Source: Candidatus Moraniibacteriota bacterium (lineage in GTDB: Bacteria; Patescibacteriota; Minisyncoccia; Moranbacterales; DUUL01). From it: a DNA stretch of 64,000 nt. Location of the stretch: assembly GCA_041583775.1 (NCBI GenBank), contig JBFHFF010000002.1, forward strand, positions 128,274 to 192,273, read 5' to 3'. Positions 6,153-38,359 of the stretch are shown here, in pieces (positions within the stretch are counted from its first letter, which is position 1; every line of letters starts with the position of its first letter). The position numbers were made by a program, and so were the translations under genes. The notes beneath the pieces were generated by a model that had not been told where the DNA came from, did no database searches, and worked only from the letters and a program-made list of their open reading frames with translations.

Positions 6153-6243
6153 ACCAGAAACTCCTCCTGATTACATAAGGAGGAAAAAAGAAAGATTATA
6201 GCGAAAACCGCAGGGCGAGTGTAGAATTGTCTACCTCGCCTTT

Positions 6244-7452: not shown

Positions 7453-7453
7453 C

Positions 7454-8260: not shown

Positions 8261-8441
8261 TTTTTCTTGTCTTTATTTATATCCTTGCCTTATTATAAAC
8301 AATTTAAAAAATTTTAACATCTTCAATTTACTTTTGCCAAAATGATTTGTTTTTGATAACATATTAATACAAAATATTTTCATTAAACTAACAGACATTA
8401 TATTTCTGTTTTTATTTTGTTTTTTAAGTATTAACAAATTT

Positions 8442-11443: not shown

Positions 11444-11719
11444 CTATTCAATACGAATTGATTTGCCTCGAACAATTGCATTTGCAATTTTTGTTCTAGC
11501 GCGCGAAAGGATTCTTTGTAAAGTGCTTTGAGATGTGTTCATTTTAGCAGCTGCTTCAGTTTGACTCATTCCTTTTTCATCAACAAGTCTTAAGGACTCA
11601 GCTTCTTCTCTTTCAAGAACAACTTCTTGCAAGTCTTTATCGAGAATTCCCTCTGGTTTAAACAGAGACGACTTTGGTCGAAAATGTACTTTTCGACGTA
11701 ACTTTGGTCTTGGTGACAT
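11444..11719 (-). CDS. DUF134/UPF0251-family small HTH DNA-binding protein (sigma-70 region 4-like)
   Basis: N-terminal MSPRPKLRRK...FKPEG motif plus C-terminal HTH (LSQTEAAAKMNTSQSTLQRILSRARTKIA). Transcribed divergently from the glycan cluster. Confidence 0.55.
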   Translation of the reverse strand: MSPRPKLRRKVHFRPKSSLFKPEGILDKDLQEVVLEREEAESLRLVDEKGMSQTEAAAKMNTSQSTLQRILSRARTKIANAIVRGKSIRIE

Positions 11720-16371: not shown

Positions 16372-16800
16372 TTAATTACATCCCGCAGGATCAAGACATG
16401 ACCTAACTGATGGTATCGTTGTCATGACATCCCTTGTTAAATCTGGGTTAATAATGTTTAAAATCAACCAAGCCGTAAGTGCTATTCCCAGTCCAAAAAT
16501 AGCACTATATATTGTTTCTTTCGCGTCACTCATTGTAGATGCATTCCCAGCAGAAAATACAGTGTATTTAAAAGCACCAAATCCTATCATAAAAATTGCT
16601 AGTAAAGCAGAAATGCCTACACCAAAAGTATACAATGAATTTAAATAAGATAAGAAATCATTTGATCCTGTAGTCTCACCTGGTACAATTTCTCGTGTTG
16701 TATAGCTACCAGCAAAAACATTGTTTGTTACAAAAATACCATAAAAACTAATCATTGCTAAGATTCGAAATTTTTTTAATTTCATATTTTTTATTATCAT
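16372..16800 (-). CDS. VirB2/TrbC-like pilin candidate (signal peptide plus two hydrophobic helices)
   Basis: 142 aa. Signal peptide ends ...NNVFA, then two TM segments (LYTFGVGISALLAIFMIGFGAF and IYSAIFGLGIALTAWLILNII), the architecture of T4SS pilins. Lies in the same operon as VirB4 and VirB6-like genes. Confidence 0.45.
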   Translation of the reverse strand: MIIKNMKLKKFRILAMISFYGIFVTNNVFAGSYTTREIVPGETTGSNDFLSYLNSLYTFGVGISALLAIFMIGFGAFKYTVFSAGNASTMSDAKETIYSAIFGLGIALTAWLILNIINPDLTRDVMTTIPSVRSCLDPAGCN

Positions 16801-19637: not shown

Positions 19638-19658
19638 AGTTTGTTTTTGTTTAGAACC

Positions 19659-20339
19659 CTAAGAAGTAAATTGTGAATAAAAATAAATATCTAATATTAA
19701 TAAATATATCCAATGGAATGCTGTTGAGACAAAAATAGATTTATTTTTATAAGCAATAAATCCAAATAAAATGTTGGGCATTAATATCAAAAGCATACTT
19801 TTTCCTGAAATCATTCCTGTAGTACCCAATTCATAAACTAAAAAAAGGAAGGCTTGGGTAATAATAGCATAAAAAATACTCATAACTGAAGTTAGTCCTT
19901 TCATTACAAATCCTCTGAAAAAAAACTCTTTTGCAAAAACCACAAAGGGAAGAATGAAAAGATCAACAAATAGCATTATTTTAACATCTTTTGCTATTAC
20001 CCAAGAAGAAACTCTTATATTTTCTTGCCAATTTAATTTTAGCACAAAAAGTACTATTACTGCAAAAAAAATAATTGTTATTCCTAACGAAGTCATTAAA
20101 TTTTTAAAATTTAAATTATTTTGTAAAAAATATTCCTTAGGATTTTCTTTGAAAATATTTTTAATAATAAAAAAAGGTGCTATAAACAGCAAAAATACTG
20201 TTGTAATCATCCATTCAAAAAATCCACCAGCCCTAACATCTTCAAGAAAAAAATTAGTCAAAAAAATAACCAAAATAAGATTCACCAAAATCACAAAGAT
20301 TATGTTTTTTTTATTTTTTATTTTTTGATTTTTTAACAT
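19659..20339 (-). CDS. CPBP-family (CAAX/Abi) intramembrane glutamic endopeptidase
   Basis: Polytopic membrane protein carrying motif 1 (EFFFRGF) and an FxxxH motif (AFHWIYL) of the CPBP family. Confidence 0.65.
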   Translation of the reverse strand: MLKNQKIKNKKNIIFVILVNLILVIFLTNFFLEDVRAGGFFEWMITTVFLLFIAPFFIIKNIFKENPKEYFLQNNLNFKNLMTSLGITIIFFAVIVLFVLKLNWQENIRVSSWVIAKDVKIMLFVDLFILPFVVFAKEFFFRGFVMKGLTSVMSIFYAIITQAFLFLVYELGTTGMISGKSMLLILMPNILFGFIAYKNKSIFVSTAFHWIYLLILDIYFYSQFTS

Positions 20340-20351
20340 TTTTTATTTTTA

Positions 20352-21011
20352 TTATTGTGCAGTTTTCGCTAACATTTCGAGCTCTCTGTACTTTTTTTTC
20401 GCTTTTTTTATTCTTTTTTTCAGAACATGATTTGCGTGCATAACACAAACAATATTTAACGGCAAAGCGCCAACAATTGGAATTATTTCTAAAAATAACA
20501 ACAAGGCTCTAAGTGTTTTAACTTTCCAGTTCCCATATCCCCAAAGCATTATAAAAAGCAATGGAGAAAAAATAAAGCTAAATATAAAAGCTGCTATTGG
20601 AATTATATCCATAAAATCAAGAAAGAATGCTAGTAAATAAGCTATTTGAATCGCAGAACTATCGCCTTCCATCATTCTTGCTCTTAATTTATTTCCTAAT
20701 CTTATAACTCTAGCTGGGAGCATTGCCTTTGGGCCTGTAGCTGCTTTGTATATTCCTCTTGCGGCCATTAATTTAGTACCTTCTTTTCTTTTTGCTGTTT
20801 GGTTATATTGTCCTGCATTTCCCTCTAATGGTCTATTTGTCTTGTAGTTTTCCAGCCTTGCTTGTTGAAGATTGTTATAATGACCAACCTCTTTTTCTTT
20901 GTCAATCCGTGAAGATTTTACATACTGAAAAGAAGATTCTTTGGGAGAATTTTTTTTAATTCCATTTAATATTTGCCTTACTCTTTTTTCATTTTCCCCA
21001 GACATACCCAA
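20352..21011 (-). CDS. Hypothetical protein with a basic N-terminal region and C-terminal 2-3 TM helices; T4SS-associated, unknown function
   Basis: ORF with a C-terminal hydrophobic block (IQIAYLLAFFLDFMDIIPIAAFIFSFIFSPLLFIMLW...). Located just downstream of virB4. Confidence 0.5.
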   Translation of the reverse strand: MGMSGENEKRVRQILNGIKKNSPKESSFQYVKSSRIDKEKEVGHYNNLQQARLENYKTNRPLEGNAGQYNQTAKRKEGTKLMAARGIYKAATGPKAMLPARVIRLGNKLRARMMEGDSSAIQIAYLLAFFLDFMDIIPIAAFIFSFIFSPLLFIMLWGYGNWKVKTLRALLLFLEIIPIVGALPLNIVCVMHANHVLKKRIKKAKKKYRELEMLAKTAQ

Positions 21012-21043
21012 TATAATTATAAATTACAAACACCTTTTTAAAA

Positions 21044-22912
21044 TTATGCTTCGTTTTCTTCTTCTTTTTCTTTCTCAAGTTCAATTCGTTGTGCGGGATT
21101 TGTAGTAATTAGTTTATCTTCGTCATATGACGCCACTACTTGGATAGCAGCTCTTTTTAAACCAGCAAAGAAAATTCCCTCCCCAACTCCGCAATCCATT
21201 AAAAGATATTTTTCTCTATCAGTTAGATAAAAGGTGTCAGCAATGACATCAATAGCTGATTGTGATTGTTTCATTAACACTTGGATAGAGGAGTTTGAGA
21301 CAATAGGTTTCCCATATTTAGATGACATAAAATCAGAAATGTCCTGCGTAATAGTAGTTAATCCTCCATAATATTTTCTAATTCTTTTTGCGACCATAAA
21401 TAAAAATCTTGCAGCTTCTTCATGCTCCATCATTCTCCAAGCCTCATCAACAACAATTAATCTTTTTTTAACATTAATTCTAACTTCTTTCCAAATATAG
21501 TTTAAAATCATATACATCGCCATTGGACGCAATTCATCTTCTAGGTCTCTAATATTAAAAACTACCAATTGATTATCGAGAGAAATATTTGTTCTGTTAT
21601 TCAAAAAACCTGAAAAAATTCCTTTTGTATATTTCTCTAATCTAATAGTAATATCCTCCACACCTTTCATATTTGACAACACTTCATATAAATCAAGCAG
21701 TACTGGCATAGCTCTATCTTTCAAATCGTCCAATGGAGTGTCTTCTGTTATATCTCTAACTGCATATGTTTCTCTAATTGCTTGTTCTAGAATTGATTCT
21801 TCTTCTGGCGTTAAAGTCCCTAACATCAATTTTAAAAGCCCTAACATTGATGATATTGTGCTTCTTATAATATCTTCTACTTCAACACCCTCCTCTATTG
21901 ATAAATCAAAGGGGTTAATGTGATTTTTTGTGTTTAAAGAAATTCTCAAATAAGAGCCTCCTACTGTTTCTGCTAGATATTTATATTCATCTTCTGGATC
22001 AATAATAATAGCACTTGCGCCCATCATTAAAGATCTTAAAATTTCCAATTTAACAGTATAACTTTTTCCAGCACCTGATTTAGCAAAGACCACCATATTC
22101 GCATTTTCCATAGAAAAACGATCGAATAATATAAGGGAATTGTTGTGCCTGTTAATTCCGTATAAAATTCCTTGGTTAGAGGTTACATCCGCAGAAACAA
22201 AAGGGAAGGTTGTTGAAAGTGGTGATGTGTTTAGTGCATTACCATTAATCAATCTGTCAATTCCAAGAGGAATTGTAGAAACAAAACCTTCTTTCATTCT
22301 AAAAATAGATCTTTTTGTATATACTGACCGAGCATTCAGCAGAGATTCTAACATAATTGTGTTTTTGTCTAGAGCATCCTTGGTCTCTCCAAATACATTA
22401 AAATAAAGCCCGAACTTAAAAAAACGCTCTGCACCTTCCTGGAGTTGATCTCTTAAGGTTTCAACATTACTGTATGCCATTTCTAAAATTGGATCTCTTG
22501 TTAAACCCTTTTCTGATTCAATATTCATCTCTGATTGAATTTGTGTGACTTTTTTTCTTAGTTTTTTTAAAATAGTTCCAGTATCAACAGGATAAATAAA
22601 CATTGATATATCCAGTGGAAGATCAATTCCAATTATTGGATTCATCCAGCCCATTGCAAGTGCTCTTGGATATGCAGCAACAAAAAGAGTTCTGCAAAAA
22701 GTATCTCCTATCTGCAAATTTGAACTAGAGACTCCAAAAGCAGATGGTGAAATTAAATCTATAACCCTAGCCAATCCCTCTTGATAAAGCCTTTCTTTAT
22801 TTAATAAATCAGAAGAAGCTTCTTCGTGAATTTCTGGTTGCTTCAAAGTAGTGGTCTTCCCAGAAATTGTTTTATTTTCTTTTATTCTTCCGAATTTAGG
22901 TAGTTCTATCAT
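21044..22912 (-). CDS. virB4: VirB4/TrbE/CagE-family type IV secretion ATPase
   Basis: Walker A (VVFAKSGAGKSYTVK), Walker B (RLIVVDEAWRMM), and the conserved N-terminal VirB4 region (ILYGINRHNN..., FDRFSMENANMVV). Confidence 0.85.
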   Translation of the reverse strand: MIELPKFGRIKENKTISGKTTTLKQPEIHEEASSDLLNKERLYQEGLARVIDLISPSAFGVSSSNLQIGDTFCRTLFVAAYPRALAMGWMNPIIGIDLPLDISMFIYPVDTGTILKKLRKKVTQIQSEMNIESEKGLTRDPILEMAYSNVETLRDQLQEGAERFFKFGLYFNVFGETKDALDKNTIMLESLLNARSVYTKRSIFRMKEGFVSTIPLGIDRLINGNALNTSPLSTTFPFVSADVTSNQGILYGINRHNNSLILFDRFSMENANMVVFAKSGAGKSYTVKLEILRSLMMGASAIIIDPEDEYKYLAETVGGSYLRISLNTKNHINPFDLSIEEGVEVEDIIRSTISSMLGLLKLMLGTLTPEEESILEQAIRETYAVRDITEDTPLDDLKDRAMPVLLDLYEVLSNMKGVEDITIRLEKYTKGIFSGFLNNRTNISLDNQLVVFNIRDLEDELRPMAMYMILNYIWKEVRINVKKRLIVVDEAWRMMEHEEAARFLFMVAKRIRKYYGGLTTITQDISDFMSSKYGKPIVSNSSIQVLMKQSQSAIDVIADTFYLTDREKYLLMDCGVGEGIFFAGLKRAAIQVVASYDEDKLITTNPAQRIELEKEKEEENEA

Positions 22913-22921
22913 ATTTTTAAA

Positions 22922-23608
22922 TTATTCTCTTTCAAGGTTTAAATCTTCTAGTGTTGGTATTGCTACATGTTCAAACTCTGAAGGGTTATAGCAGTTATAA
23001 TACATTTCTATCAACTCTTGTGTGTTTAATGGCACAATTCTAATCCCACTACCGGAGAGTGATTCTTTAACTTCTTCAACTCTTTGAAAAAGTTGATTTT
23101 TATATGTTTCAAATTGCTCTCTTTCTTGATAAATATTTTTTCGAGGTGTTAGTTTTGCCAACATTTTATCAAGAAATCCTGTTTTTTTAGATTCTACAGC
23201 GTAAAAAGGAACTACTATATAGAACAATTTTGACATAATGTTAGAAACATTAACTAATTCTCCAATAAAGTTTAGATAATCTTCTATCTGATTTCTAAGC
23301 AAAGCATTTCTTTCTGTGTCTTTTTTTCTTTCAAGCATCTCTAAATATGGTTTGATATCAAATTTTCTAGTAGAAATAACTATTTGTATTGGAAAATCTA
23401 ATGAATTTAAAAACCTTTGGTATGCAAAAATAATAGCCTCCTGTTCTGTGCTAGATTTTAAATCAAAATTTATTGAAGAAACAGCTAAAACCGCTCTTAA
23501 GGAGCCATCTTTAACAACAACTGTCCCGTCTTTAATTTCGGAAACATTTAATTCTTCTTGCATACTAGAACCCACCATTCCTGCCATAAAACTAAAATTA
23601 ATAATCAA
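22922..23608 (-). CDS. Hypothetical T4SS-associated protein (228 aa)
   Basis: ORF translationally coupled to the PrgI-like gene upstream and virB4 downstream. No recognisable motif. Confidence 0.5.
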   Translation of the reverse strand: MIINFSFMAGMVGSSMQEELNVSEIKDGTVVVKDGSLRAVLAVSSINFDLKSSTEQEAIIFAYQRFLNSLDFPIQIVISTRKFDIKPYLEMLERKKDTERNALLRNQIEDYLNFIGELVNVSNIMSKLFYIVVPFYAVESKKTGFLDKMLAKLTPRKNIYQEREQFETYKNQLFQRVEEVKESLSGSGIRIVPLNTQELIEMYYNCYNPSEFEHVAIPTLEDLNLERE

Positions 23609-24018
23609 ATTTTACTATTCTTGTCTAATAAATCAGCTAAGTTACTTGAGTTTTTCAATTCCTTTTCTTTAACAAATCTATTAATTGAAGCTTTTTCATC
23701 CTCCTTTATTCTCTTTACTGGCTCTCTCGTTTCATTTCTTATATTTCTATGCCAAGTTAAAACCTTCGGTTTAAATAAATAAGAAATCCCATTTAAAACA
23801 AATTGGAGAAAGGTCATTCCCGCTGGTTTATAAAAAGCAAAAGCCAAGGACAAAAGTACAACTGGTGCACCTATTAGCACTAAAGCCGCTATTGAATCTG
23901 TTTGCCACAAAAAAAACAGTCCTGTGGCTCCTAGGGCCAACCAACCCAATTGTTTTATTGTTAGTTGAAAAGCTAACTTGTCTTCAACTTCGATATATTG
24001 TGGAACATTGAAATTCAT
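23605..24018 (-). CDS. PrgI/VirB3-like small membrane protein
   Basis: 137 aa with two adjacent TM helices after a short N-terminus (LGWLALGATGLFFLWQ... LVLIGAPVVLLSLAFAFY), in the usual position immediately upstream of the VirB4 region. Matches the PrgI family of Gram-positive conjugation systems. Confidence 0.55.
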   Translation of the reverse strand: MNFNVPQYIEVEDKLAFQLTIKQLGWLALGATGLFFLWQTDSIAALVLIGAPVVLLSLAFAFYKPAGMTFLQFVLNGISYLFKPKVLTWHRNIRNETREPVKRIKEDEKASINRFVKEKELKNSSNLADLLDKNSKI

Positions 24019-24030
24019 ATTTGCTTTTTA

Positions 24031-25020
24031 TTAAACATCCTTCAAGTTTATAAGGTGTTTTGATTGTATTTCACCCTCCTCTTCAGTGGTTTTTTGTTTT
24101 TCACTTTCCGTCTCTTTTAGTTTCCCCATCTCTTCTGTTTTTTCATCATAAACTTTCTTCTCTTGATCTTCTGTTGATGGAATTTCTTTTTCTTGCACTT
24201 CCCTAATTTCTCTCTCTATAAACTCTTCCGTTTCTTGTTGCTTTTTATTTTCCAAAGATTCTTTTAATTTCTCTGAAATTTCACCCGCTGTGTTATTGAA
24301 TAAAATTATTTTTCTATTGGCATCAATTTCAAGGTCACTATTCTCATCATAAGACTCCAAAATCATTAAAAGAGCTTTTTTTTCTAAAAAGGTTAGGTTG
24401 CTTACATTTTTTGAGTTAAAAATATAATCACTTCTCTCTAGATTGTTGTGTGCTTGAGAGCCTTTTTGTATAGTGTAATCATCTAGCCAATTCTCTATTG
24501 ATTGCTTTCTTGGTTCTATTTCTTCTGAAATTTTTATCTTGCTCTCCCCTAATAATTGCTTCCCTATTTCTGGAAATTTTTTTAGTGCTGAAATTAAAGG
24601 CATTCTTTCTATTTCAATATCCAAACCACTGTTTTCTATGTCGCTGATTTTTTTCCGAAGACTAAAAAGTTCAACAATGAGCTTTTCTGCTTCATTTTCA
24701 TCAATTCTTATTCTCTCGACAATTCTTTTTTTAATCTTTTCCTCATTAAAGACTCCTTCAACAAAAGAATCTCTAATAATTCTAGAAATTTCACCAACTT
24801 CAGAAATTTTATAAATATTAAACTTCTTTGCAATTCTGATAATATTCTCTTCTGTTTTTTCAACAACAAGTCCTAATCTAATTTGATAAGGCAATTTATT
24901 ATAAATTTCCAACCAACCTAAATCATCATTTTGTGTATCATCTTTTGGATCCCAATGAACACTAGCACTCATTGGACAAGCCTGCTTCCTTATTAATCTT
25001 TCGTTTTCTATTTCTTGCAT
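24031..25020 (-). CDS. Hypothetical acidic coiled-coil protein (329 aa), T4SS-associated
   Basis: ORF with an E/K-rich C-terminal half. No recognisable motif. Confidence 0.45.
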   Translation of the reverse strand: MQEIENERLIRKQACPMSASVHWDPKDDTQNDDLGWLEIYNKLPYQIRLGLVVEKTEENIIRIAKKFNIYKISEVGEISRIIRDSFVEGVFNEEKIKKRIVERIRIDENEAEKLIVELFSLRKKISDIENSGLDIEIERMPLISALKKFPEIGKQLLGESKIKISEEIEPRKQSIENWLDDYTIQKGSQAHNNLERSDYIFNSKNVSNLTFLEKKALLMILESYDENSDLEIDANRKIILFNNTAGEISEKLKESLENKKQQETEEFIEREIREVQEKEIPSTEDQEKKVYDEKTEEMGKLKETESEKQKTTEEEGEIQSKHLINLKDV

Positions 25021-25034
25021 TTTTATTTTTTATT

Positions 25035-27065
25035 TTATTCATTCATTCCTTTCATTGCTTTTCTTGCCTCATTATCTCCCAAATCTTCTTTGGTTATACC
25101 TGAAATAATTTCTTTTAATGCTTCTTGTTTCAACCCATCTGTTTTTTCAGCTGCATGCTTTCGAAGTTGTTCTTGACTAAATCTATCATCACCACTTGCT
25201 TGTTTTTCTTTTATATAAGTTTTAACATTATCATTTTTTAAGAAATCTACAGATTGATCGGTTATATCACTCAATTTCATTTTCCCTAAATTATCACTAT
25301 ATGTTTTTTCAATATATTCCTTTCTTGCTTTTTCTCTAAATCTATCCTCAGATTCTTTACTCATTGAAACTCCACCCAGTTTGGTATTTTCGTCTATAAC
25401 TTTTTTATCCAGTTCTTTGCTCATATTTCTGCTAATTTCATGTTCAATCATTTCTCCTCTATTTTTCTTTCTGGCGAGCTTTTCAAATTTATCCAAAGCC
25501 TCTGGGCTGTTTTTAAACAACTCATAAGCTCTAGCATAGCTATCGTCATCCTTTGTCATGCCTAATTTCCCATCTTCTGCTAACTTCATTGCTGCTGCTT
25601 TTTTTCTAGCAATTAATTGTGCTGTGGTGTTTGAACCCTTCCCACCAGCTAAATTTGCAAGAGAGTTTAAGGTGGTTGGATTTGCTTTTAACATTTTCTT
25701 TAAAGCATCTTCATTAGGAATACCATTTTCATCCCAGTTTTTTGTTTGTTCTTGTTGTAATTTCTGTTGGTGAGCAAGTTTAGCAGACTTACTTCCAATT
25801 TGGGCTCTCTTGGAAAGCATTCTGGCTTCGTTGTTTTCTTTGTACCAAGTTTTTGTGTTATCAACAGCAGCTTTACCATATCCCAAACCATATCCCAAAG
25901 TTCCTGCATAGACAGCTCCTTTAGCTAATTTACCTGCCTTTCCCAATCCCCAAGCAGCACCATCACCTGCTTGACTTGCGATTTTTTTAGAAAGATCAAA
26001 ACCATAAAATAACATATAAATACAAGCACTGAATGGGACTAATATTCTAAGAGCGCCTATGACTAAGTTTTCTGATTGAGTTCCTGCCATCTGAACTCCA
26101 CCCCCACTAGCTGTAACATTAATACTAACAGCACTAACCAAAACAAGTGCTAGCCAAAGAAAAAATAACATTACCGGACCAAAAGCACACCAATATGTCA
26201 ATTTACTGAACCAGGTGGTTTTTATACTTCCAATGGCCGTTCCTGGGAGTGCTAATGCAAAAAAAGCTAAAGGGGAAAGGATTATTAAAACCCAAAGAGC
26301 TATAAGTCTAAGAATAAGAGACATTCCAAGAGCTAATAGCATAATTCCCATAATAAATTTAAAAATTGCCTCAATTATCATGCTAATATATAGTGCTACA
26401 TTGGAGCCACCTGTTTCACTTTTAAAAGAGGCTCCCATTCCCACTGAATTTAGAAGCGCGGCTGAATAACTAGCTGATCCTTCTTTTATATTGCTTAGAA
26501 AAAATGACATTGCTAAGTTTGAAATATCAATAAAAAAAAGTGTAATTGGTTTTGAAAAATTGACAAACAAAGCAGCTGAAACAACATAGATAATAAATTT
26601 TTTGTCTGAATATTTATTAATTCTCAAAATGGTAGCGATTGCTACAAAAATCAAAATTAAGATGAAAAATATATTCACAAAATCCCTCACTAATCCCCAG
26701 CCAGTGTTAATTGCTGTGAGCGCATTGCCAGAGAAAAAAACTTCTTCATATAACTGATCTGTCATTGTCATATCAACAACACTCATCCCCACACCCAAGA
26801 TGAAACCACTAAATGCTTGCAATAATTGCAAGCATCCCACAATCATATTGTCCATTATTTTAGAGGGCGTAGGAAGACCAAGAAAACCGCCATTTTTCCC
26901 GTCTATTTCTCCAGCATCTGCCAAATCTGCGGCCCCTGTATCACCAATCATTCGCCAGCCCTCTGCTGCATTTGTTTGATTTATATTTATAATAAAAAAG
27001 GAAAAAATTATTACTATTGGCAATATCGCTTTGAGCCATTTTTTTTTGTTTTTGAAAGATATCAT
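25035..27065 (-). CDS. VirB6/TrbL-like polytopic inner-membrane channel protein with a long hydrophilic C-terminal tail
   Basis: Signal peptide, an extracytoplasmic segment, then 6-8 TM helices and a ~250-aa charged C-terminal domain. Size and topology match TrbL/VirB6. Confidence 0.55.
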   Translation of the reverse strand: MISFKNKKKWLKAILPIVIIFSFFIININQTNAAEGWRMIGDTGAADLADAGEIDGKNGGFLGLPTPSKIMDNMIVGCLQLLQAFSGFILGVGMSVVDMTMTDQLYEEVFFSGNALTAINTGWGLVRDFVNIFFILILIFVAIATILRINKYSDKKFIIYVVSAALFVNFSKPITLFFIDISNLAMSFFLSNIKEGSASYSAALLNSVGMGASFKSETGGSNVALYISMIIEAIFKFIMGIMLLALGMSLILRLIALWVLIILSPLAFFALALPGTAIGSIKTTWFSKLTYWCAFGPVMLFFLWLALVLVSAVSINVTASGGGVQMAGTQSENLVIGALRILVPFSACIYMLFYGFDLSKKIASQAGDGAAWGLGKAGKLAKGAVYAGTLGYGLGYGKAAVDNTKTWYKENNEARMLSKRAQIGSKSAKLAHQQKLQQEQTKNWDENGIPNEDALKKMLKANPTTLNSLANLAGGKGSNTTAQLIARKKAAAMKLAEDGKLGMTKDDDSYARAYELFKNSPEALDKFEKLARKKNRGEMIEHEISRNMSKELDKKVIDENTKLGGVSMSKESEDRFREKARKEYIEKTYSDNLGKMKLSDITDQSVDFLKNDNVKTYIKEKQASGDDRFSQEQLRKHAAEKTDGLKQEALKEIISGITKEDLGDNEARKAMKGMNE

Positions 27066-27076
27066 TTTTTTGCTGT

Positions 27077-27988
27077 TTAAATTGTAAGACCTTTTTTAAT
27101 TCTATCTTGAAGAACATTTATACCGTCTGTTCCAATAGTTCTTTCTATTCTTCGAACTTCATTATTGATTGGTTTTGCCACAACATTGATTCCACTTTTA
27201 ACAAAAGATGTGACCGAAGAAACCACAAAACTTGCAATGACTTCTTCCAATGAACCAGCATTATTAATCATCTCAATTGGCATTGTTTCAGCAGCAGCGA
27301 CAATTTCTTGGGAAATTTTTCCTGGGATAACTTTATTTCCTTCCGTGATAGTGTTAAACCCACCACCCGCAATGGCTTCTGCTTCTTGGGCTTGAGCTTT
27401 TTGCATTGCCTCATTATCTATAACTTCCATGGCATTAACATAAGCATTTGTTGAGTTATTATAGTCCCCAAATTGATAAGAAAGAAAAGCTCCTACGCCT
27501 CCTCCCCTTGTTTGATCAAAAACATCACCAATTGGATCATCTGAATCAACTAATTCATGTAATGTTGCTTCTGGTTGCCCAGGAGAAAGTTGACTACTAA
27601 TTGTTTGTTCAACATTTCTTAACATATCCCTTTCTGAAGTAGAAACACCTTCTTGTATAACTGAAAAGAAATCTTCTAATTTGTTCTCAGCAGCTACTTG
27701 TGCTGCTCCAAAAATAAAATCTTCATAACTAGAAATAACCATAGATTCTCCAGATGAACCTGAGACAGCCTTTTCAATACTTTCTTTAATCATATTATTC
27801 GCCTCTTTTTTAAGAGTCTGAAGAACTGTCTTTCTGGTAATCTCAAAAACCTGTTGCATTGCTTGTTGCATAAGACCAGATGCAATATTTGTTCCCCACA
27901 TTTCAGCACAAACTGTTGTTGGCATGATTGTAACAAAAAGAAAGGCCGCTATAGTTATCGTTGCTGTTATTTTTTTTATTTTTATCAT
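27077..27988 (-). CDS. Secreted hypothetical protein (303 aa); possible VirB5-like minor pilus or adhesin subunit
   Basis: Signal peptide (ITIAAFLFVTIMPTTVCAEMW) and an Ala/Gln/Glu-rich, mostly helical composition. Confidence 0.4.
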   Translation of the reverse strand: MIKIKKITATITIAAFLFVTIMPTTVCAEMWGTNIASGLMQQAMQQVFEITRKTVLQTLKKEANNMIKESIEKAVSGSSGESMVISSYEDFIFGAAQVAAENKLEDFFSVIQEGVSTSERDMLRNVEQTISSQLSPGQPEATLHELVDSDDPIGDVFDQTRGGGVGAFLSYQFGDYNNSTNAYVNAMEVIDNEAMQKAQAQEAEAIAGGGFNTITEGNKVIPGKISQEIVAAAETMPIEMINNAGSLEEVIASFVVSSVTSFVKSGINVVAKPINNEVRRIERTIGTDGINVLQDRIKKGLTI

Positions 27989-28046
27989 TTTTGCTCCGTA
28001 TAAATATTATACCTTATATCTGAAATTTTTAATTTAAAATTGATTC

Positions 28047-29177
28047 TTATAAACCATACATTGAAGATGTGTTCATTAGTTGATCCACATCAACAGAGTT
28101 TGTTATTTCTGAAATATCAAAAGAATCAATGTCAAATTGATCTAAAATTTCTGTTGTATCAGAACTTAAGACATCCATTTCAGACATAACTGCTTGCACT
28201 TTTCCAAGCATAGATACTAGTGCAACAGGATCATCTTTATCCGTTGCCAATGTTTCATCCTGACCAAGCATATATTTTTGCAAGGATAATCCCATTTTAT
28301 GGACATCTTTTAATACATATGGTACTTCCAGTGCTTTGATTTTTTCATACATAGTTTCTGATTTTCCTTTAAGATCAGTAACTTTTGAAGAGTCACCTTC
28401 TTCAATATCAATACCTATCCCGCCTATTAAACTAGTTGCCATTCCAATTATATTATCACTGTCTTGAAACAGATATGGAGCTTCTTCAAACATTATATAT
28501 CCCACTGCAACAAAATATTCTTCAACAGCAGCTTTTTCTTCTTCAAGGGTTTGATCATTTTTTTCAGTCACCTCCTCTTGAATATTCAACTCTTCATCTG
28601 AAATTATTTCCAACTCTTCATCTAAATTAACTTCTTGAATTGTTTTTTCAACGATGGCTTGCACCTCCTCCTCTGTTAAGGAATATTTTGTGGCATCTTC
28701 TGATGCTGCCACTGTTTTTAAAATTTCATCATCAATAGATGCTTGGTTGAGTAATTTTAATTCTTCTTCTTTATCTTCTTTTATGTTTTTCAAAAAAACT
28801 TCTGTTGCATTTATTTTTTGTGTATCAATTTTATCAAGAGGGTTATTGGTGATTTCTCCTTCTGTTTTTTTAGTAGTCGTGTTTATGTTTGACCCATCTA
28901 TTGAATTTATTTGTGTCTCTATTTTTTTTACCAACGGATCAAACCCTCCTTCAACCTCAACTCCATCAGAATATCCATCCTCATCTGTGTCTGCTTTGTT
29001 AGGGTCTGTTCCTAAGGCTAACTCCTCTTGATTTGTTAAGCCATCACCATCTAAATCCTCAAAATAGTTGGGTTCGTTTTCATCAGCTGATGAAAATTGA
29101 ATCCAAGCAAAAGCGAGGATAGCAAAAAACATAGCCCCTTTTTTAATTGGTGATTTAAAATTGTTATTTTTATTCAT
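28047..29177 (-). CDS. Secreted acidic protein with thrombospondin type 3 Ca-binding repeats
   Basis: Signal peptide, DLDGDGLTNQEELALGTDPNKADTDEDGYSDGVEVEGGFDP, and a very acidic C-terminal half. Confidence 0.6.
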   Translation of the reverse strand: MNKNNNFKSPIKKGAMFFAILAFAWIQFSSADENEPNYFEDLDGDGLTNQEELALGTDPNKADTDEDGYSDGVEVEGGFDPLVKKIETQINSIDGSNINTTTKKTEGEITNNPLDKIDTQKINATEVFLKNIKEDKEEELKLLNQASIDDEILKTVAASEDATKYSLTEEEVQAIVEKTIQEVNLDEELEIISDEELNIQEEVTEKNDQTLEEEKAAVEEYFVAVGYIMFEEAPYLFQDSDNIIGMATSLIGGIGIDIEEGDSSKVTDLKGKSETMYEKIKALEVPYVLKDVHKMGLSLQKYMLGQDETLATDKDDPVALVSMLGKVQAVMSEMDVLSSDTTEILDQFDIDSFDISEITNSVDVDQLMNTSSMYGL

Positions 29178-31214: not shown

Positions 31215-32363
31215 CTAGGATTTTATAATCGGCATAATAACATAAGAAAAGGATTCATCAACCTCCCCTTTTGTTTTTATTCTTTTAAAAACCACTGGTG
31301 ATTTTTGTTTATTTAATTTTATTAAAACTTTTTCACAATCAAATAAAATACTAGACAAACCCTCGAGTATAAATCTACAGTTAAATAAAATTTCAAAATC
31401 AGTACCTGATATTTTTGCTGGTATCTTTGAGAGATTATCACCAGAATCCATTGATTGTGCAGTAATTAATAAGGCATCTAATTCTTTGGTATTTTTAAAA
31501 TTAACCTCTCCATTTTGAGAGTTTGTTACTAAAGAAGCAATTTTAACAGCATTTATCAGTTTTTCTTTCTCTACTTCAAGTTCTATATCAAACTTCTTGG
31601 GTAAAACCTGTTTATATTCAGGATAATTTCCATTTATCAATCTTGAAACTATTTTTATTTCACTTGTGCTTATGAATAATTGATTTTGTTCAATAACTAT
31701 ATTAATTTCTTCATCTCTTGCAATTCTTTGAACTTCCATTAACGCTAGTGCTGGAATAATGATTGCTGATTTTTTTTCTTTAAATGTTTCAAAACTCTCT
31801 TCGTCCTCAACTTCAATTCCATCAATATTAATTTCTGTTAATCTAAAACTATCAGTTGATGCTAATGTGATTGAGTTATTTTTAAATTTCATCAATATTC
31901 CATTTAATTCCTGTCTTGTGTCATTGTGAGCAACAGAAACGAGAACTCCTGAAATAGCTTTGTTTAATTTTTTAGGTTCAATGGAAAAAAATGATTCATC
32001 TGGAACATCTGGGATAATAGGAAAATCTTTTGCATCAATTCCTTTTATTTTTATTTTATGATTTTCTGTAGTTATTTTTAATTCCGATCCCTCAAGTTCA
32101 CCAGAAACAACCTCATCTTTTATGGTATTTAAAAAACCTCCAACAATTCTTGCAGGAATCGTTATACTTCCCTCTTTTTCTATTTTAGCTCCTATATAAA
32201 CCTTGATTGCTATCTCTAGATTTGTTGCAGCTAAAACCAATCTACCTTTTTCTGATGAAATTAATATATTTCCTAAAATTGGAAGTGTTGTTTGTTTTGA
32301 AACAATCCTTTCAACTTTTGATATCCCCTCTCTTAAATTAATCGCTTTGCAAGTAAATTTCAT
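31215..32363 (-). CDS. dnaN: DNA polymerase III beta sliding clamp
   Basis: N-terminal MKFTCKAINLREGISKVERIVSKQTTLPILGNILIS and a three-domain length (382 aa). Confidence 0.9.
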   Translation of the reverse strand: MKFTCKAINLREGISKVERIVSKQTTLPILGNILISSEKGRLVLAATNLEIAIKVYIGAKIEKEGSITIPARIVGGFLNTIKDEVVSGELEGSELKITTENHKIKIKGIDAKDFPIIPDVPDESFFSIEPKKLNKAISGVLVSVAHNDTRQELNGILMKFKNNSITLASTDSFRLTEINIDGIEVEDEESFETFKEKKSAIIIPALALMEVQRIARDEEINIVIEQNQLFISTSEIKIVSRLINGNYPEYKQVLPKKFDIELEVEKEKLINAVKIASLVTNSQNGEVNFKNTKELDALLITAQSMDSGDNLSKIPAKISGTDFEILFNCRFILEGLSSILFDCEKVLIKLNKQKSPVVFKRIKTKGEVDESFSYVIMPIIKS

Positions 32364-32644
32364 TTTCTGTAATTATTTAATAATATCTTTATATATATCT
32401 TATTATTATTATCTATTAGACAACAAAAGATGTGTATAAGTCTAATAAAAGCTTTAAATAAAAGTAAATTTCTGTCTATAAAACTAACACATAAAAAGAC
32501 AATGACTGTTAATGGATTTGTTGAAAACTCATTTTTTGATAAGAAAATAAGTTTTCGAAAAAGTTATTAACAAAAAAGAATAAATAACTAAACAATTAAA
32601 TAACAAACAGTAAACAAGTTTTAAACATACTTATTCACAAATTT
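32364..32644. promoter_or_regulatory. AT-rich dnaA-dnaN intergenic region with near-consensus DnaA boxes; candidate oriC segment
   Basis: TGTGTATAA at 32431..32439 and TTATTCACA at 32631..32639, each one mismatch from TTATCCACA/TGTGGATAA, in a 280-nt region of very high AT content. Confidence 0.4.
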
Positions 32645-34045
32645 TTAATATTCAATAAATTTTTCCTTTATAAATTTCAATTGATCTTTCATTAAAAGAT
32701 TATTTTCCAATTCCTTGTTTATTTTTTCATAACCATAAATTGCAGTAGAATGATCCCTTCCTCCCAAAGACTTTCCAATCTCAGGAAAGGATAAATTTAA
32801 TTCTTGTCTTAAAAAATAAATAACAATTTGTCTTGGTTTCACAACTTTTTTTTGACGAGATTTCCCAATAATTTCCTCAGGTTTTACATCATAAAAATCA
32901 GCCACAGACTTGATTATTTTTGAAACAGTTAAATCCTTTTGTCTATTAATAGAAATAACATCCTTTGTCATCTCAGTAACATCTTCAATTGTTGGTGTTG
33001 TATTCCTAAGTTGAAAAGTAACAATTATTTTATTTAAAGCACCTTCTAATTCTCGTACATTGTGGTAAATATTAATTGCTAAATATTCAACAACATCCTC
33101 GGGTATAGAAAAGTTTTTTTCAGACAATTTTTTATTTATAATAGCAATTCTTGTTTCTAAATCAGGTTTATTTACATCTGCCATCATCCCCCCCTCAAAA
33201 CGCGATCGTAAACGATCTTCAATTGTTGGAATTGATTTAGGAGCTCTATCAGAACTTAGGATAATTTGTTTTCCTAATTGATAAAGAGATTCAAAAATGT
33301 GAAAAAATTCCTCCTGAGTTTTTTCTTTTCCAGCCAAAAATTGAACATCATCAAGAATTAGAATATCTAAATCAATATAACTGTTTTTAAATTCCTTTGC
33401 TTTAGATTTTTGAATTGCATCCACAAGTTCATTTGTAAATCTTTCCATACTTACATAACGGATTTTAATGTTAGGGTTAAGTTTTCCCGCATAATTTCCC
33501 GTTGACTGTAAAAGGTGTGTTTTTCCAAGACCAACACCACCATAAATAAATAAAGGATTATAGTTTTTACCAGGAGCTTCAGCAATTGAACGACAAGCAG
33601 CATAAGCCAATTCATTATTTCCTCCAACAACAAAACTATCAAAAGAATATCTACTATTAAGATTTGACCTATAAATATTTTTTTGTGAGGTTGGATTTGT
33701 GAAAGAGCGTTGATTGTTGTTTATTTTTTTAATGTCAGCAACTGTATTAGTGTTTTGATTGATTTTTGGTTTTTTAATTCCATTTAAATCTGAAGGATCA
33801 GAGTTACCTATTCTACATGAAAGAGCGTTAATTTCTCTTCGATATTGTTGTACAGCGTCTATTATTTGTGTTTTATATTTTTTTTCCAGCCATTCTTTGG
33901 CAAAAATATTAGGAACAGAAACAATAAGTAAATTATCAGTGATACCAAAAATAGAGGTACTTTTAAACCATGTAGTAAAACTCGCCTTTGAAATTGATAG
34001 CTCCATTTCCCCCAACACAGCTTGCCACAGCTCCTCGTTGGTCAT
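32645..34045 (-). CDS. dnaA: Chromosomal replication initiator DnaA
   Basis: AAA+ Walker A (GGVGLGKTHLLQSTG), Walker B/sensor (LILDDVQFLAGKEKTQEEF) and the C-terminal DnaA-box-binding domain (GGRDHSTAIYGYEKI). Confidence 0.95.
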   Translation of the reverse strand: MTNEELWQAVLGEMELSISKASFTTWFKSTSIFGITDNLLIVSVPNIFAKEWLEKKYKTQIIDAVQQYRREINALSCRIGNSDPSDLNGIKKPKINQNTNTVADIKKINNNQRSFTNPTSQKNIYRSNLNSRYSFDSFVVGGNNELAYAACRSIAEAPGKNYNPLFIYGGVGLGKTHLLQSTGNYAGKLNPNIKIRYVSMERFTNELVDAIQKSKAKEFKNSYIDLDILILDDVQFLAGKEKTQEEFFHIFESLYQLGKQIILSSDRAPKSIPTIEDRLRSRFEGGMMADVNKPDLETRIAIINKKLSEKNFSIPEDVVEYLAINIYHNVRELEGALNKIIVTFQLRNTTPTIEDVTEMTKDVISINRQKDLTVSKIIKSVADFYDVKPEEIIGKSRQKKVVKPRQIVIYFLRQELNLSFPEIGKSLGGRDHSTAIYGYEKINKELENNLLMKDQLKFIKEKFIEY

Positions 34046-34113: not shown

Positions 34114-34132
34114 GCTTAAAAATGTGGATAAA
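34114..34132. promoter_or_regulatory. Perfect consensus DnaA box (TGTGGATAA) plus an adjacent degenerate box, upstream of dnaA
   Basis: TGTGGATAA at 34114..34122 is the reverse complement of TTATCCACA; TGTGGAAAA follows at 34124..34132. Both lie 70-90 nt upstream of the dnaA start codon. Confidence 0.6.
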
Positions 34133-34204
34133 CTGTGGAAAAAAGGAAAAACTTTTTATTTAAAAAGAAAAAATTGTCAAGTTTCAAAAAATTAAAATAA
34201 AAAA

Positions 34205-34249: not shown

Positions 34250-35245
34250 TTATCTCCCCTTCTTCCAACTGGCAGTAAAGGTGCTTGATGATTGATTCAT
34301 GGAATATAAATATTCCATTTTTTTCAATCTGTTAATGTCAATTTTTGACAACTCGGGATTTTCATTCCCGGTTAAAATTTCATTATTTACCTGGAATATT
34401 ATCCTGGAAATGTACTCTTTTGCTAAATCATATCTTCCGGAGACCCCACAAGAATATGCAACTGCCTCCAGAAGCGTAAATCGCTCCTTGAAACCAAGAT
34501 ATTCTTGCCCATCAAATAATGATTCCCAGGCTCTTTTAGCAACTTTCTCGATATCGGGAATAGGATTTCTATTCTCAACTGAATGCATAATTTCACAAAC
34601 AGCTGATTGTCCAAAATCTCCCGTCGATGCAAAAGCGGCTTTTGCATCTTCATACTGCTGGAGTGTAAACAACAGCACTCCTATTTGGAAGCGGGTTATT
34701 TCCGCTCCAACTTCAAGTCCTTTTTCCAAAAAGTAGAGCGCTTCAGGGAGCGCTTCAGGATTTGGCTTGTTTTTTGAGCCTGAGCCCCCATAGTAAAGAT
34801 TTTTTGCTTTAACGAGATACTCAAAACCTTTTGGCACAGGCTTTAAATGGCAAAGAAGAGTACCTTTTTCGCTTTTTAGCTCGAAAACATCAGTACCCCT
34901 TTTTTTAGACAGATAAAGAGATATCGGCCCCTTTTTATTCCTGAGAACAAGGACTTCTCCCTCAGTTGTTTTCTTGAAAAAATAAGCTTCTCGAGGAACA
35001 TCCTCGAGGTCGTAAAACACAAAACCTTCTTGCCATTTGACCAGCCGAGATCTGGGGGTTTTTGGGCTTTCTCCATAGAATAACAAGAAGGATTTTCCAA
35101 CGATGTCTTCAGAGGAAACCGAAGAATTATCCCCACCTTCTTGTTTTTGTGAAAAAAATGCAAAACTATCTGTTGTCTGAAAACAACAAATTAAAAAAAG
35201 GGAGAAAAAAAATACACACAAAGAACTCAAATTTATTTTTTTCAT
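34250..35245 (-). CDS. Secreted Sel1/TPR-like repeat protein of noticeably higher GC than its neighbours; likely start MKKINLSS, with the longest ORF reaching 35281
   Basis: Signal-peptide-like N-terminus. Sel1-like repeats (LYYGGSGSKNKPNPEALPEALYFLEKGLEVGAEI... YEDAKAAFASTGDFGQSAVCEIM). Stretches near 50% GC against a ~30% background. Confidence 0.55.
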   Translation of the reverse strand: MKKINLSSLCVFFFSLFLICCFQTTDSFAFFSQKQEGGDNSSVSSEDIVGKSFLLFYGESPKTPRSRLVKWQEGFVFYDLEDVPREAYFFKKTTEGEVLVLRNKKGPISLYLSKKRGTDVFELKSEKGTLLCHLKPVPKGFEYLVKAKNLYYGGSGSKNKPNPEALPEALYFLEKGLEVGAEITRFQIGVLLFTLQQYEDAKAAFASTGDFGQSAVCEIMHSVENRNPIPDIEKVAKRAWESLFDGQEYLGFKERFTLLEAVAYSCGVSGRYDLAKEYISRIIFQVNNEILTGNENPELSKIDINRLKKMEYLYSMNQSSSTFTASWKKGR

Positions 35246-35580
35246 TAGAAGCACCTCTTTTTGTTGGTGGCTTTGAGCCAATTTGAAAGTTTAGATAACT
35301 AAACTATTTGTTTAATAAAAAGAACTTTACAGTAAAGAATAACAAGAAAAGTTGTTTTGTCAAGACATATTTATCTGTTTTTGTCAATAAAATATAACAA
35401 AAAAAGACAAAAATCATTAAAAAGCCTAAAGAAAGCTAAAAAATGAAAGAAAAAAATATGTTTTTTATTGACAAAAAATCTAAAAGAAGGTCTAATTATT
35501 GATAAAAATCTGAAAAAATTCACAAGATAATGAATATAAAATTATTAATTATTATAAATAAACTTTGTTTATAATAGAAT

Positions 35581-35884
35581 CTTATATTGTTCCATGTGGA
35601 ACAATATAAGATGACTTGAAATGTAGAAGGAATCATTTGAATTACAAAATTAAAGAAAGAAGATTTTTTTAAAGATTTTGAGAAATATTGAAAAAGTAAA
35701 CAATTGTTCTATGTGGAACAATTGTTTATTGTGTTAATTATAATTGTTCCACATAGAACATAATATTGATAATAAAGAAATAACAAAGAATAATAGAAAT
35801 AATTAAAAATAGTGAGTGTTTTAATTAAAAAATAATAAAATGTTTCTAAAATATTATCCCTAAATGTTCCATGTGGAACATTGA
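35581..35884. repeat. Four copies of a 16-bp palindromic motif TGTTCCAYRTGGAACA spread over an 800-nt AT-rich non-coding region
   Basis: The four copies are CTTATATTGTTCCA-TG-TGGAACAATATAAG at 35581..35610 (a 14-bp perfect inverted repeat), CAATTGTTCTATGTGGAACAATTG at 35701..35724, TTGTTCCACATAGAACAT around 35744..35761, and AATGTTCCATGTGGAACATT at 35863..35882. Confidence 0.65.
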
Positions 35885-36084
35885 AGAGTGTTAAGATTAA
35901 TAAAAGAATATAAATTCAAAACATAAAAAAGAATACTATAAAAAAGCGTTTAAAAGTATTTTTAAAAATAAATTAAAAAAACAAAAACAATGAAATTGAT
36001 TTTTTAAGCATTTTGTTGTATACAAGATGAAGGGAGTTAAATAAATCGTAAAATAAAGAAAGTTTTATTTAAAAATCCGTGATT

Positions 36085-36256: not shown

Positions 36257-38359
36257 ATGAAAAAATTAAAAATTCCAAAAAGCGTTCAGCGCGTTCTAAT
36301 GAAACTGGAAAAATCTGGCTTTGAGGTTTTTGTGGTTGGTGGTTGTGTTAGGGATATTTTGTTAGGAAAAAACCCAAAAGACTGGGATGTTACAACAAAT
36401 GCGACTCCAAGGCAAGTTATGGGGATTTTTTTGGATGCAAAATATGAAAATGATTTTGGAACAGTTTTGATTTCTGATAAATATCTCACGGGATATGAAA
36501 TTGTGTCAGATAAAATTGAAATAAAGCCAGAGATAAAGGAAAAAATTATCAAGATAGCCAAAGAAAAATATCTTGCAAAAATAAAATGCAAAGGTCATAG
36601 CGTTCAACATTCAAAAAATGTGACAAAAAATGCCCTGGAAATAGCAAAAACATTTAAGAGAATAAATCCTGATTTTATTGAGATTATTTCAATATTTCAT
36701 GATTCTGGAAAGGCACTTATTAAAAATCAAGAAAACTCAGGACATATAGAAAGATCTCAGTTTATCATAGAAAAGGAAATTAAAGAATTTTTTCCGAAAA
36801 AAGAAGTGGAAATTTTTAAAAAAGCAATTTCACACAACCCTAGTGTTGTAAGGGAAAATTTAGAAAATCAGATCTTGGTAGAAGCGGATTTAATTGATGG
36901 GCTTTGTGCTGAAAGAATTAATGCAATGAGTGGTGATGCAAAAAAGGAACATATAGATTGGGTTGGGAAATATTTCAATAAAAAGGGTGCTTTTAAAGAG
37001 ATAATTACGGTTAGAGGGAAAGAATTAATGTCAGAAGCAATTAATTTATACAATCAAGCAGATTTTAATTTTCAGCTACCGCAAATAGAAATTTCAAAAA
37101 ATGAGAATATTGAAATAACAACATATCGAACAGAGTCGGTTTATTCAGATAAAAGACACCCAGACGAGGTTGAATTTGCAGAAACATTAGAAGAAGATCT
37201 TTCGAGAAGAGATTTTACGGTCAATGCAATGGCATTAAAACAACTCACAAAAGAAAAGAAGGAATTAAAAGAGTTTTTAATTTCCGATGAATATCAAATA
37301 ATAGATTTGTTTAAGGGAAGTTTAGATATTCAAAATAAACTTATAAGAGCAGTTGGGGATCCAAAAGAGCGTTTTGCTGAAGATGCGCTTAGAATGTTAA
37401 GAGCAGTTCGTTTTGCCACCTCTTTAGGGTTTGAAATAGAGGAAAAAACTAAAAAAGCAATCCAATATAAAATTAAAAATCTAACCTTCGTTTCAATAGA
37501 AAGAATCAGAGATGAATTTGAAAAAATCATACTTTCAGAGCATCCAGGGAGAGGGGTGGAATTGCTTATTGAAACAGGCTTGATGAAGTTTATTATTCCA
37601 GAAGTATTAGAAACGATAGGTGTTGAGCAGAATCACCATCATTATTATGGTAAATACAACACCGTTTATAAACATTTGGTAGCAAGCCTAGAAAAATGCC
37701 CATCAAAGGAACTAGAAGTGAGACTAGCAGCCTTTTTACATGATATTGGAAAGCCAGTTGTTAAAAGAGGTGTTGGGGAAAAGGCAACTTTTTATAATCA
37801 TGAATATGTGGGGAGTAAAATGGTTAAAAATATTCTAGAAAGACTTAAATTTACCAGAAAAACAATTGATAAAACAACATTACTCGTTAAAAATCATATG
37901 TTTTATTACAATGTTGATGAGGTTGGGGAATCTGGAGTGAGGCGGGTTGTGAAAAAAGTTGGTATAGAAAACATAAAAGACTTGATTGATGTTCGAATCG
38001 GTGACAGATTGGGGAGTGGAGTCCCTAAGGCTGTTCCTTACAAACTAAGACATTTCCAGTATATGGTTGAGAAAGTTTCAAAGGATCCAATTTCAGTAAA
38101 ACAATTAAAAATAAATGGGGATATTTTAATAAAAGAACTTAAAATAGAGCCTGGTCCGCAAATTGGGGCTATTTTAGAGGTTTTGTTGGCAAAAGTAATA
38201 GAAAATCCAGAAATAAACAAAAAACAGCAACTACTTATTTTAGCAGAAAAGCTTAGAAATGAAGACCTTGGTGATTTAAGGAGGTTTGCGAAAAATAAAA
38301 TTAAACAAGAAAATAAAAAAGAAGAAAAAGAAACTAAAAAGAAACATTGGGTTAAATAA
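36257..38359 (+). CDS. cca: CCA-adding enzyme (tRNA nucleotidyltransferase, class II head plus C-terminal HD domain) carrying a ~215-aa insertion in the head domain that contains a second HD-like motif
   Basis: GGCVRDILLGKNPKDWDV (GG...DxD), then TYRTESVYSDKRHPDEVEFAETLEEDLSRRDFTVNAMAL, a C-terminal HD (FLHDIGK), and the insertion motif GHSVQHS...IISIFHDSGK. The ORF-track start at 36230 overlaps tRNA-Arg, so the start is probably MKKLKIP at 36257. Confidence 0.8.
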   Translation: MKKLKIPKSVQRVLMKLEKSGFEVFVVGGCVRDILLGKNPKDWDVTTNATPRQVMGIFLDAKYENDFGTVLISDKYLTGYEIVSDKIEIKPEIKEKIIKIAKEKYLAKIKCKGHSVQHSKNVTKNALEIAKTFKRINPDFIEIISIFHDSGKALIKNQENSGHIERSQFIIEKEIKEFFPKKEVEIFKKAISHNPSVVRENLENQILVEADLIDGLCAERINAMSGDAKKEHIDWVGKYFNKKGAFKEIITVRGKELMSEAINLYNQADFNFQLPQIEISKNENIEITTYRTESVYSDKRHPDEVEFAETLEEDLSRRDFTVNAMALKQLTKEKKELKEFLISDEYQIIDLFKGSLDIQNKLIRAVGDPKERFAEDALRMLRAVRFATSLGFEIEEKTKKAIQYKIKNLTFVSIERIRDEFEKIILSEHPGRGVELLIETGLMKFIIPEVLETIGVEQNHHHYYGKYNTVYKHLVASLEKCPSKELEVRLAAFLHDIGKPVVKRGVGEKATFYNHEYVGSKMVKNILERLKFTRKTIDKTTLLVKNHMFYYNVDEVGESGVRRVVKKVGIENIKDLIDVRIGDRLGSGVPKAVPYKLRHFQYMVEKVSKDPISVKQLKINGDILIKELKIEPGPQIGAILEVLLAKVIENPEINKKQQLLILAEKLRNEDLGDLRRFAKNKIKQENKKEEKETKKKHWVK

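Follow-up and report, generated by a model that had tools for sequence, protein, structure and literature searches.

Four probable parS sites with altered centres beside the replication origin of a Moranbacteria-like member of the Patescibacteria

The closest described counterparts of the sites in this report are the chromosomal parS elements, the 16-bp centromeres of the ParABS system. The Bacillus subtilis parS consensus is TGTTNCACGTGAAACA (PMC7022226 Table 1), Pseudomonas aeruginosa and Pseudomonas putida share the form TGTTCCACGTGGAACA (PMC7022226 Table 1; PMC4368675), and the Myxococcus xanthus site, TGTTCCACGTGGAACG, differs from the Pseudomonas form at the last base only (PMC7022226 Table 1). 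One P. aeruginosa site, parS5 (TGTTCTACATGGAACA), has a CA centre and a second change; it is bound, though as the weakest of the ten P. aeruginosa sites, and the study emphasizes the CACGTG core (PMC4368675). With Burkholderia parS-c1, symmetric changes abolished binding except at positions 1/16 and 5/12. The Noc-binding site (NBS), TATTTCCCGGGAAATA, has an A at position 2 and a C at position 7 of its half-site (TATTTCCC). In the literature that we searched, no paper on ParB or parS in Patescibacteria was found, and 16-mers of this kind with a TG centre were printed in none.

The four sites described here lie in a 64-kb stretch of DNA, analysed in full and called the window. We conclude, with a probability of about 0.88, that they are chromosomal parS, arrayed beside the replication origin of Moranbacteria-like Patescibacteria. 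All four have a TG or CA centre, and the best-supported cause of this change is a lineage-specific, genome-wide purge of the tetramer ACGT.

The sites occupy a non-coding block of 803 nt (35282..36084) between divergently transcribed genes. Its GC content is 19.2%, compared with 31.9% for the whole window, and its only ORF, of 50 aa, is not credible. A search of the block against Rfam returned no credible family; besides the downstream tRNAs there were spurious microRNA-type matches caused by the palindromes. To the left, on the minus strand, are a gene for a secreted protein (34250-35245; signal-peptide or lipoprotein-like N-terminus, no Pfam match), dnaA (32645-34045, 1237 nt from the block) and dnaN (31215-32363, also minus). 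The plus-strand genes after the block are tRNA-Ala, tRNA-Arg and cca. The cumulative G-C minimum falls at 35257, at the left edge of the block, where GC skew changes sign, and the switch in gene strand coincides with the block. Given the dnaA/dnaN neighborhood, the skew minimum, the strand switch, and the relatives described below, we assign the block to the origin of the chromosome in a CPR bacterium of Moranbacteria-like type. The original prediction had described an AT-rich non-coding block of about 800 nt, some 1.2 kb from dnaA and by a tRNA/cca cluster, which is what we find, and the comparison with GC skew that it proposed puts the array at the minimum.

Three features of the neighborhood are recorded here in their own right. 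The cca gene (36257-38359) is unusually long, at about 700 aa, and has two separate matches to the PolyA_pol head domain plus HD domains; the versions in the relatives L004 and L006 are 488-553 aa. Just downstream of dnaN is a type IV secretion-like cluster (16372-29177; T4SS pilin, VirB4/TraG-like ATPase, PrgI, TraC-like), whose order is conserved in all close relatives. Farther to the right, a UvrC gene lies between two UvrA paralogues, both of full length (958 and 944 aa) (55515-58391, 58799-60052, and 60143-62977).

Site 1 (35588..35603) reads TGTTCCATGTGGAACA, with one half-site a perfect TGTTCCAC and the other altered by C8>T. Site 2 (35705..35720; TGTTCTATGTGGAACA) carries both C8>T and C6>T in one and the same half-site, site 3 (35745..35760; TGTTCCACATAGAACA) is inverted and has a CA centre, and site 4 (35865..35880) is again TGTTCCATGTGGAACA. 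The half-site TGTTCCAC is intact once in each of the four, and their general form is TGTTC[C/T]ATGTGGAACA. Site 1 lies within a perfect inverted repeat with 16-nt arms (35579-35594 and 35597-35612), a 34-bp palindrome at 35579-35612, and site 2 within an extended palindrome at approximately 35697-35728. Sites 2 and 3 are exact inverted copies of each other, with 19-nt arms at 35705-35723 and 35742-35760. The four inverted-repeat sites were located correctly from the outset, but the arms of site 1 had been given as 14 bp, and the 16-mers had been called palindromes, which they are not: because a TG or CA centre is not self-complementary, the sites are asymmetric and each has an orientation.

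When the window was searched with TGTTCCANNTGGAACA, allowing up to 2 mismatches, there were 5 matches, compared with 0.42 expected, and none of 100 shuffles (0/100) reached that number. Beyond the four sites, the 64 kb contain no further match at up to 1 mismatch, so that the motif is not a dispersed repeat within the window; it is confined to one spacer, which is the favorable outcome of the check on scattering that accompanied the original prediction. The fifth match lies inside dnaN at 31992-32007 (TGATTCATCTGGAACA) and is parS-like at 14/16 positions, i.e., with 2 mismatches. A similar string recurs in the dnaN genes of relatives, for example TGTTCCAGATGAAGCA in L007, and most likely reflects coding conservation rather than a binding site. 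Another motif, GAATATAAAWTY, has just two copies in the window, at 35532-35543 and 35906-35917, in the same orientation; they bracket the parS array, at distances of 45 nt from its first site and 26 nt from its last. The relatives keep the motif at both positions (TGAATTTATATTC and TTTTATATTCAT), and one copy resembles a TGAAT-N4-ATTCA dyad.

The parS consensus joins the half-sites TGTT(T/C)CAC and GTG(A/G)AACA, and with up to about 2 mismatches allowed all four sites conform to it, at 15/16, 14/16, 14/16, and 15/16 positions. They are 15/16 or 14/16 identical to the Pseudomonas form TGTTCCACGTGGAACA, and the motif is 14/16 identical to the Bacillus consensus. Their location is likewise that of an origin-proximal centromere, at the skew minimum and strand switch and 1.2 kb from dnaA. 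In one respect they depart from canonical parS, since the CG of the CACGTG core is replaced by TG in three sites and by CA in site 3. To our knowledge no protein besides ParB selects this 16-mer, and on that ground ParB is the probable binder.

Orthologous loci were collected as dnaA loci fetched through DnaA homologues, under names such as Patescibacteria and Candidatus Moranbacteria. Six relatives, with DnaA 59-94% identical and conserved flanking genes, have 4-22 copies of parS in the same spacer upstream of dnaA, and most of these copies are canonical. L007 and L008 (DnaA 94% and 91%) each have five perfect copies of TGTTCCACGTGGAACA, and L002 (83%) has six. L009 (82%) has six sites with a mix of T and C at positions 5 and 12, three of them CG-centred and three CA-centred. 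L004 (70%) has 22 sites of the TGTTTCACGTGAAACA type, 19 of them exact, in 2.8 kb of gene-free DNA, and L006 (59%) has four perfect copies of TGTTTCACGTGAAACA. The proposal to look for the motif at the same locus in relatives was thus borne out, and in the form of canonical parS.

The 16-mers are conserved over and above their surroundings in these six relatives. Spacer identity between the window and the relatives is 54-68% (about 68% for the block and L007), and at such low identity the survival of the 16-mer points to selection that preserves it. Compared with L007, the 14 non-central bases of the four sites are conserved at 14/14, 13/14, 13/14, and 14/14 positions, for which a rough estimate of the chance in a spacer so diverged is ~7e-7. 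Two more distant relatives (DnaA 51-52%), with rnpA-yidC(-jag) upstream of dnaA, have neither parS nor ParB within 10 kb on either side of dnaA; the array beside dnaA is therefore a feature of this clade.

Two of the arrays have peculiarities of their own. That of L009 (8250-8597) mixes forms, with TGTTTCACGTGGAACA, TGTTCCACGTGAAACA, and three copies of TGTTCCACATGGAACA, and its CA-centred copies are identical to sites 1 and 4 of the window and have the same orientation relative to dnaA. The L004 array (6072-8885) has a site spacing of about 125-145 bp. Part of it grew by segmental duplication, since the flanks of its sites recur exactly 1552 bp apart (6924/8476, 7067/8619, and 7192/8744); Tandem Repeats Finder detected no tandem repeat in the 22-site array.

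The altered centre has a counterpart in the composition of the whole window. ACGT occurs once in the 64 kb, compared with 39.5-39.9 occurrences expected from a Markov model (z = -11), and no other of the 256 tetramers is so depleted; the sole copy is at 11696, inside a small gene (11444-11719). ACGA, ACGC, and ACGG have normal frequencies. None of the six relatives is depleted, the observed and expected numbers being 19/18, 25/20.6, 22/20, 17/20.9, 43/29.5, and 28/24.6, and so the purge would postdate the divergence of this lineage from L007 and L008. At aligned sites with ACGT in the relatives, the window most often reads ATGT or ACAT (25/54, the parS sites counted in), and these replacements are the same changes as those at the parS centres. 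A restriction system specific for ACGT could have selected against the word, or its C, if methylated, could have been lost to deamination; we saw no gene for a restriction enzyme or a methyltransferase in the window. Other 4-bp palindromes are avoided in other relatives, namely, GTAC in L006 (1 observed, 11.6 expected), CATG in L091 (11 and 52), and TTAA in L090 (48 and 91). Restriction-modification pressure that differs between lineages would be expected to leave such a pattern, with a different palindrome avoided in each relative, and the turnover of avoided words among these small genomes seems to be fast.

Loss of ACGT is, however, sufficient rather than necessary for the change of centre, because L009 has three CA-centred sites and yet no ACGT depletion in its 21 kb, and because many metagenome loci in which all sites are TG-centred are also not ACGT-poor. 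The metagenome set was obtained with a scan pattern that combined a TG-centred site with a second parS within 20-50 bp, and such loci number at least 120. Among the 120 matches listed, 72 encode ParA and/or ParB homologues within the sequence retrieved, with a median distance of 717 bp between the ParB match and the site closest to it. Among the matches listed, the median ratio of observed to expected ACGT outside the sites is 0.63 for loci with TG or CA centres only, compared with 0.89 for loci that include a CG-centred site (Mann-Whitney p = 4e-4), and ratios below 0.3 are found in 9/46 of the former and 1/45 of the latter (Fisher p = 0.015). ACGT-poor loci with parAB alongside include L159 (0 ACGT, 27 expected) and L167 (1 and 24), as well as L173 and L203. 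A second set, selected on ParB instead, comprised the best 80 loci, nearly all from Bacillota, of a contig profile scan with a three-species ParB alignment; 49/59 of the sites next to parB in these loci are CG-centred and 9/59 (15%) are TG/CA-centred.

From these two sets we conclude that TG-centred parS is a common minor variant, which becomes the only form in ACGT-poor genomes. The missing central CG is accordingly no bar to a parS identity for the window sites, given the TG/CA-centred sites near parB in Bacillota, the TG-centred metagenome loci with parA/parB, and the CA-centred parS5 that is bound in P. aeruginosa. The combination of ACGT-poor DNA with an absence of CG-centred parS recurs in about 10 metagenome loci of differing base composition, several of which have intact parAB. 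Tentatively, and at odds that we put a little short of even, avoidance of a restriction word can rewrite a near-universal centromere, an ACGT purge leaving every parS TG-centred and asymmetric while ParB either tolerates the change or co-adapts to it. No description of a link between ACGT avoidance and the parS centre was found in the literature searched.

By analogy with characterized systems, a ParB dimer would dock one helix-turn-helix on each 8-bp half-site, bind CTP, close into a clamp, and slide onto the flanking DNA. Repeated loading at the four sites would then build a partition complex over the origin region, and this complex would load SMC condensin and, where ParA is present, be pulled apart after replication. 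The window sites may bind ParB more weakly than canonical ones, since parS5 is weak and core changes abolish binding in Burkholderia.

Searches for ParA and ParB genes gave nothing in the 64-kb window and nothing in 11 dnaA-centred loci of relatives. A regular-expression search of the window ORFs for GERRxRA and Walker-A motifs gave no match, nor did phmmer searches of all window ORFs with B. subtilis Spo0J (a query checked against PDB 6SDK) and Soj. The gene at 34250-35245 was considered as a divergent ParB and rejected, on account of its signal-peptide or lipoprotein-like N-terminus and its lack of a Pfam match. Because these loci hold no ParB gene, we infer the ParB of this genome, and its binding to the altered sites, from the sites themselves. 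The original prediction had assigned the sites to a dimeric DNA-binding protein that it could not name. The dimer, the tie to the origin, and the partition protein that it listed among its options all hold good, parS being the target of a ParB dimer, although the motif itself went unrecognized; the origin-binding factor would be part of an ordinary ParB-parS system. Nothing supports the DUF134 protein suggested at that time as the binder.

The same lack of a ParB gene in the window and in the relatives' loci would be expected if the sites were relics, i.e., decaying remnants without present function, left after ParB was lost or after mutation of the centre abolished its binding. Two further observations fit such decay: the window has four sites and the closest relatives five, and core changes lower the affinity of ParB in Pseudomonas and Burkholderia. 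We nonetheless regard decay as improbable. The 16-mers have hardly changed, save for the centre change that the loss of ACGT required, in a spacer whose identity has dropped to about 68%; the exact duplication that relates sites 2 and 3 is recent; and TG-centred sites stand beside intact parAB in many ACGT-poor metagenome loci, such as the four named above. Functional parS remains the preferred reading.

A dyad of 16 bp is also the geometry of operators for dimeric regulators or other origin factors, such as a CRP/FNR-type or other helix-turn-helix repressor, and the parS sites do lie between divergent promoter-like sites. One of these (35336..35363, minus strand; TTGACA-16-TATTCT with TG) is conserved in relatives and faces the 34250-35245 gene and dnaA; if ParB spreads from the array, this promoter would be exposed to it. 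In the same part of the block, a perfect 15-nt inverted repeat, TTTTTGTCAATAAAA / TTTTATTGACAAAAA (35378-35392 and 35463-35477), sets two opposed TTGACA boxes 70 nt apart, both of which are conserved in relatives. The right-facing box (with TCTAAT downstream) would drive transcription into the parS array, where no product is evident. Control of divergent promoters is nevertheless a very unlikely role for the sites, for their sequence is that of parS within one or two bases and is exactly canonical parS in relatives, up to 22 copies over 2.8 kb (L004) are unlike an operator, and there is no adjacent candidate regulator, the neighbor being the signal-peptide protein without a Pfam match.

The original prediction had offered as a further possibility that the block supplies the DnaA boxes and unwinding element of oriC, with the string TGTTCCACA as a diverged DnaA box. 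This string occurs in each site and matches the box TTATCCACA at 7/9 positions, and the block has a very high AT content and a position at the skew minimum. The DnaA of this clade evidently uses canonical boxes, however, and these flank dnaA. About 90 nt upstream of the gene is a box pair on the minus strand (34123..34142; TTATCCACA at 34123 and TTTTCCACA at 34134), present at the same position in four relatives (L007, L008, L002, and L009). On the other side, the dnaA-dnaN spacer (32364..32644) has boxes at 32431 and 32631, and weaker ones besides. In the relatives this spacer is about 280 nt long, has a GC content of 17-25%, and contains boxes in every case; it is the probable unwinding module of oriC. 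The block itself (35282-36084) contains no 9-mer within 1 mismatch of TTATCCACA. Furthermore, the half-site of L004 and L006, TGTTTCACG, matches the box at just 6/9 positions (counted by eye), and yet the full 16-mer is perfectly conserved. An oriC made of diverged boxes is thus scarcely credible, and oriC most probably has its DnaA-box modules on either side of dnaA, the arrangement of Bacillus, with the block as an adjacent centromere plus promoters.

Equally hard to credit are structural palindromes, whether hairpins or cruciforms, bidirectional terminators, or a repeat of the REP/MITE kind. In favor of such a reading, 14-15-bp hairpins form from sites 1 and 2 (z = -8.6 and -6.7) and are also flagged as terminator-like, and three or more extra complementary bases flank 31% of the clade's sites, compared with 3.3% by chance. 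Against it, the flanking genes diverge, so that a terminator would have no transcript to end; within the 64 kb the motif keeps to a single spacer; site 3 has hardly any tendency to fold (z = -0.8); and what the relatives share is the 16-mer and not the flanks of the stem. The frequent embedding of parS in longer perfect palindromes, with flanks that vary from copy to copy, is a curiosity of the clade (window 35579-35612 and 35697-35728; L007, L002, L009, and L006), and one site in L007 has 15 extra complementary bases per side. These palindromes may arise from quasi-palindrome correction by template switching, or reflect a preference for symmetry in the flanks.

The parS identification removes a supposed mystery, leaving an ordinary ParB-parS centromere and no new regulatory system to pursue. 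The element is of a known kind, ordinary as such, in a lineage for which we found no earlier description. This clade keeps canonical parS arrays beside dnaA, and the array is a clean landmark of the origin for a group of uncultured Patescibacteria. The connection between ACGT avoidance and the centre of the centromere adds a modest twist. It raises the question of how much of the invariant CACGTG core ParB needs, and natural genomes without ACGT offer ready-made ParB/parS pairs with which tolerance could be distinguished from co-adaptation.

Of the described systems, the Pseudomonas parS cluster shares with the closest relatives of the window the same T5C/A12G form, TGTTCCACGTGGAACA. P. aeruginosa and P. 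putida have four sites beside oriC, and the window likewise has a small cluster adjacent to the origin. In P. aeruginosa, however, a CA centre is found only in the weak, origin-distal parS5, whereas every site of the window has a TG or CA centre, and in Pseudomonas parAB is known and binding by ParB has been shown experimentally, whereas no parB gene was found in the window.

The NBS has a similar geometry over 16 bp and is bound by the same protein superfamily. The window sites read TGTTCCA-, with the parS-type G2 and A7, and an identity as NBS was rejected.

Canonical parS of the B. subtilis type and the window sites are both 16 bp, consist of two 8-bp half-sites, and occur near the origin in several copies, and the relatives L004 and L006 carry exactly the canonical TGTTNCACGTGAAACA. 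In B. subtilis, parS sites are scattered across the chromosomal region around the origin, and many fall within genes. In the window, unlike B. subtilis, all known copies are in one intergenic block, and none adjoins a parB gene. The M. xanthus array (22 sites) and that of L004 (22 sites in 2.8 kb) are both dense and are each held in one origin-proximal region; compared with the 22 of M. xanthus, the window has just four sites, and the arrays of its clade lie between the cca/tRNA genes and dnaA.
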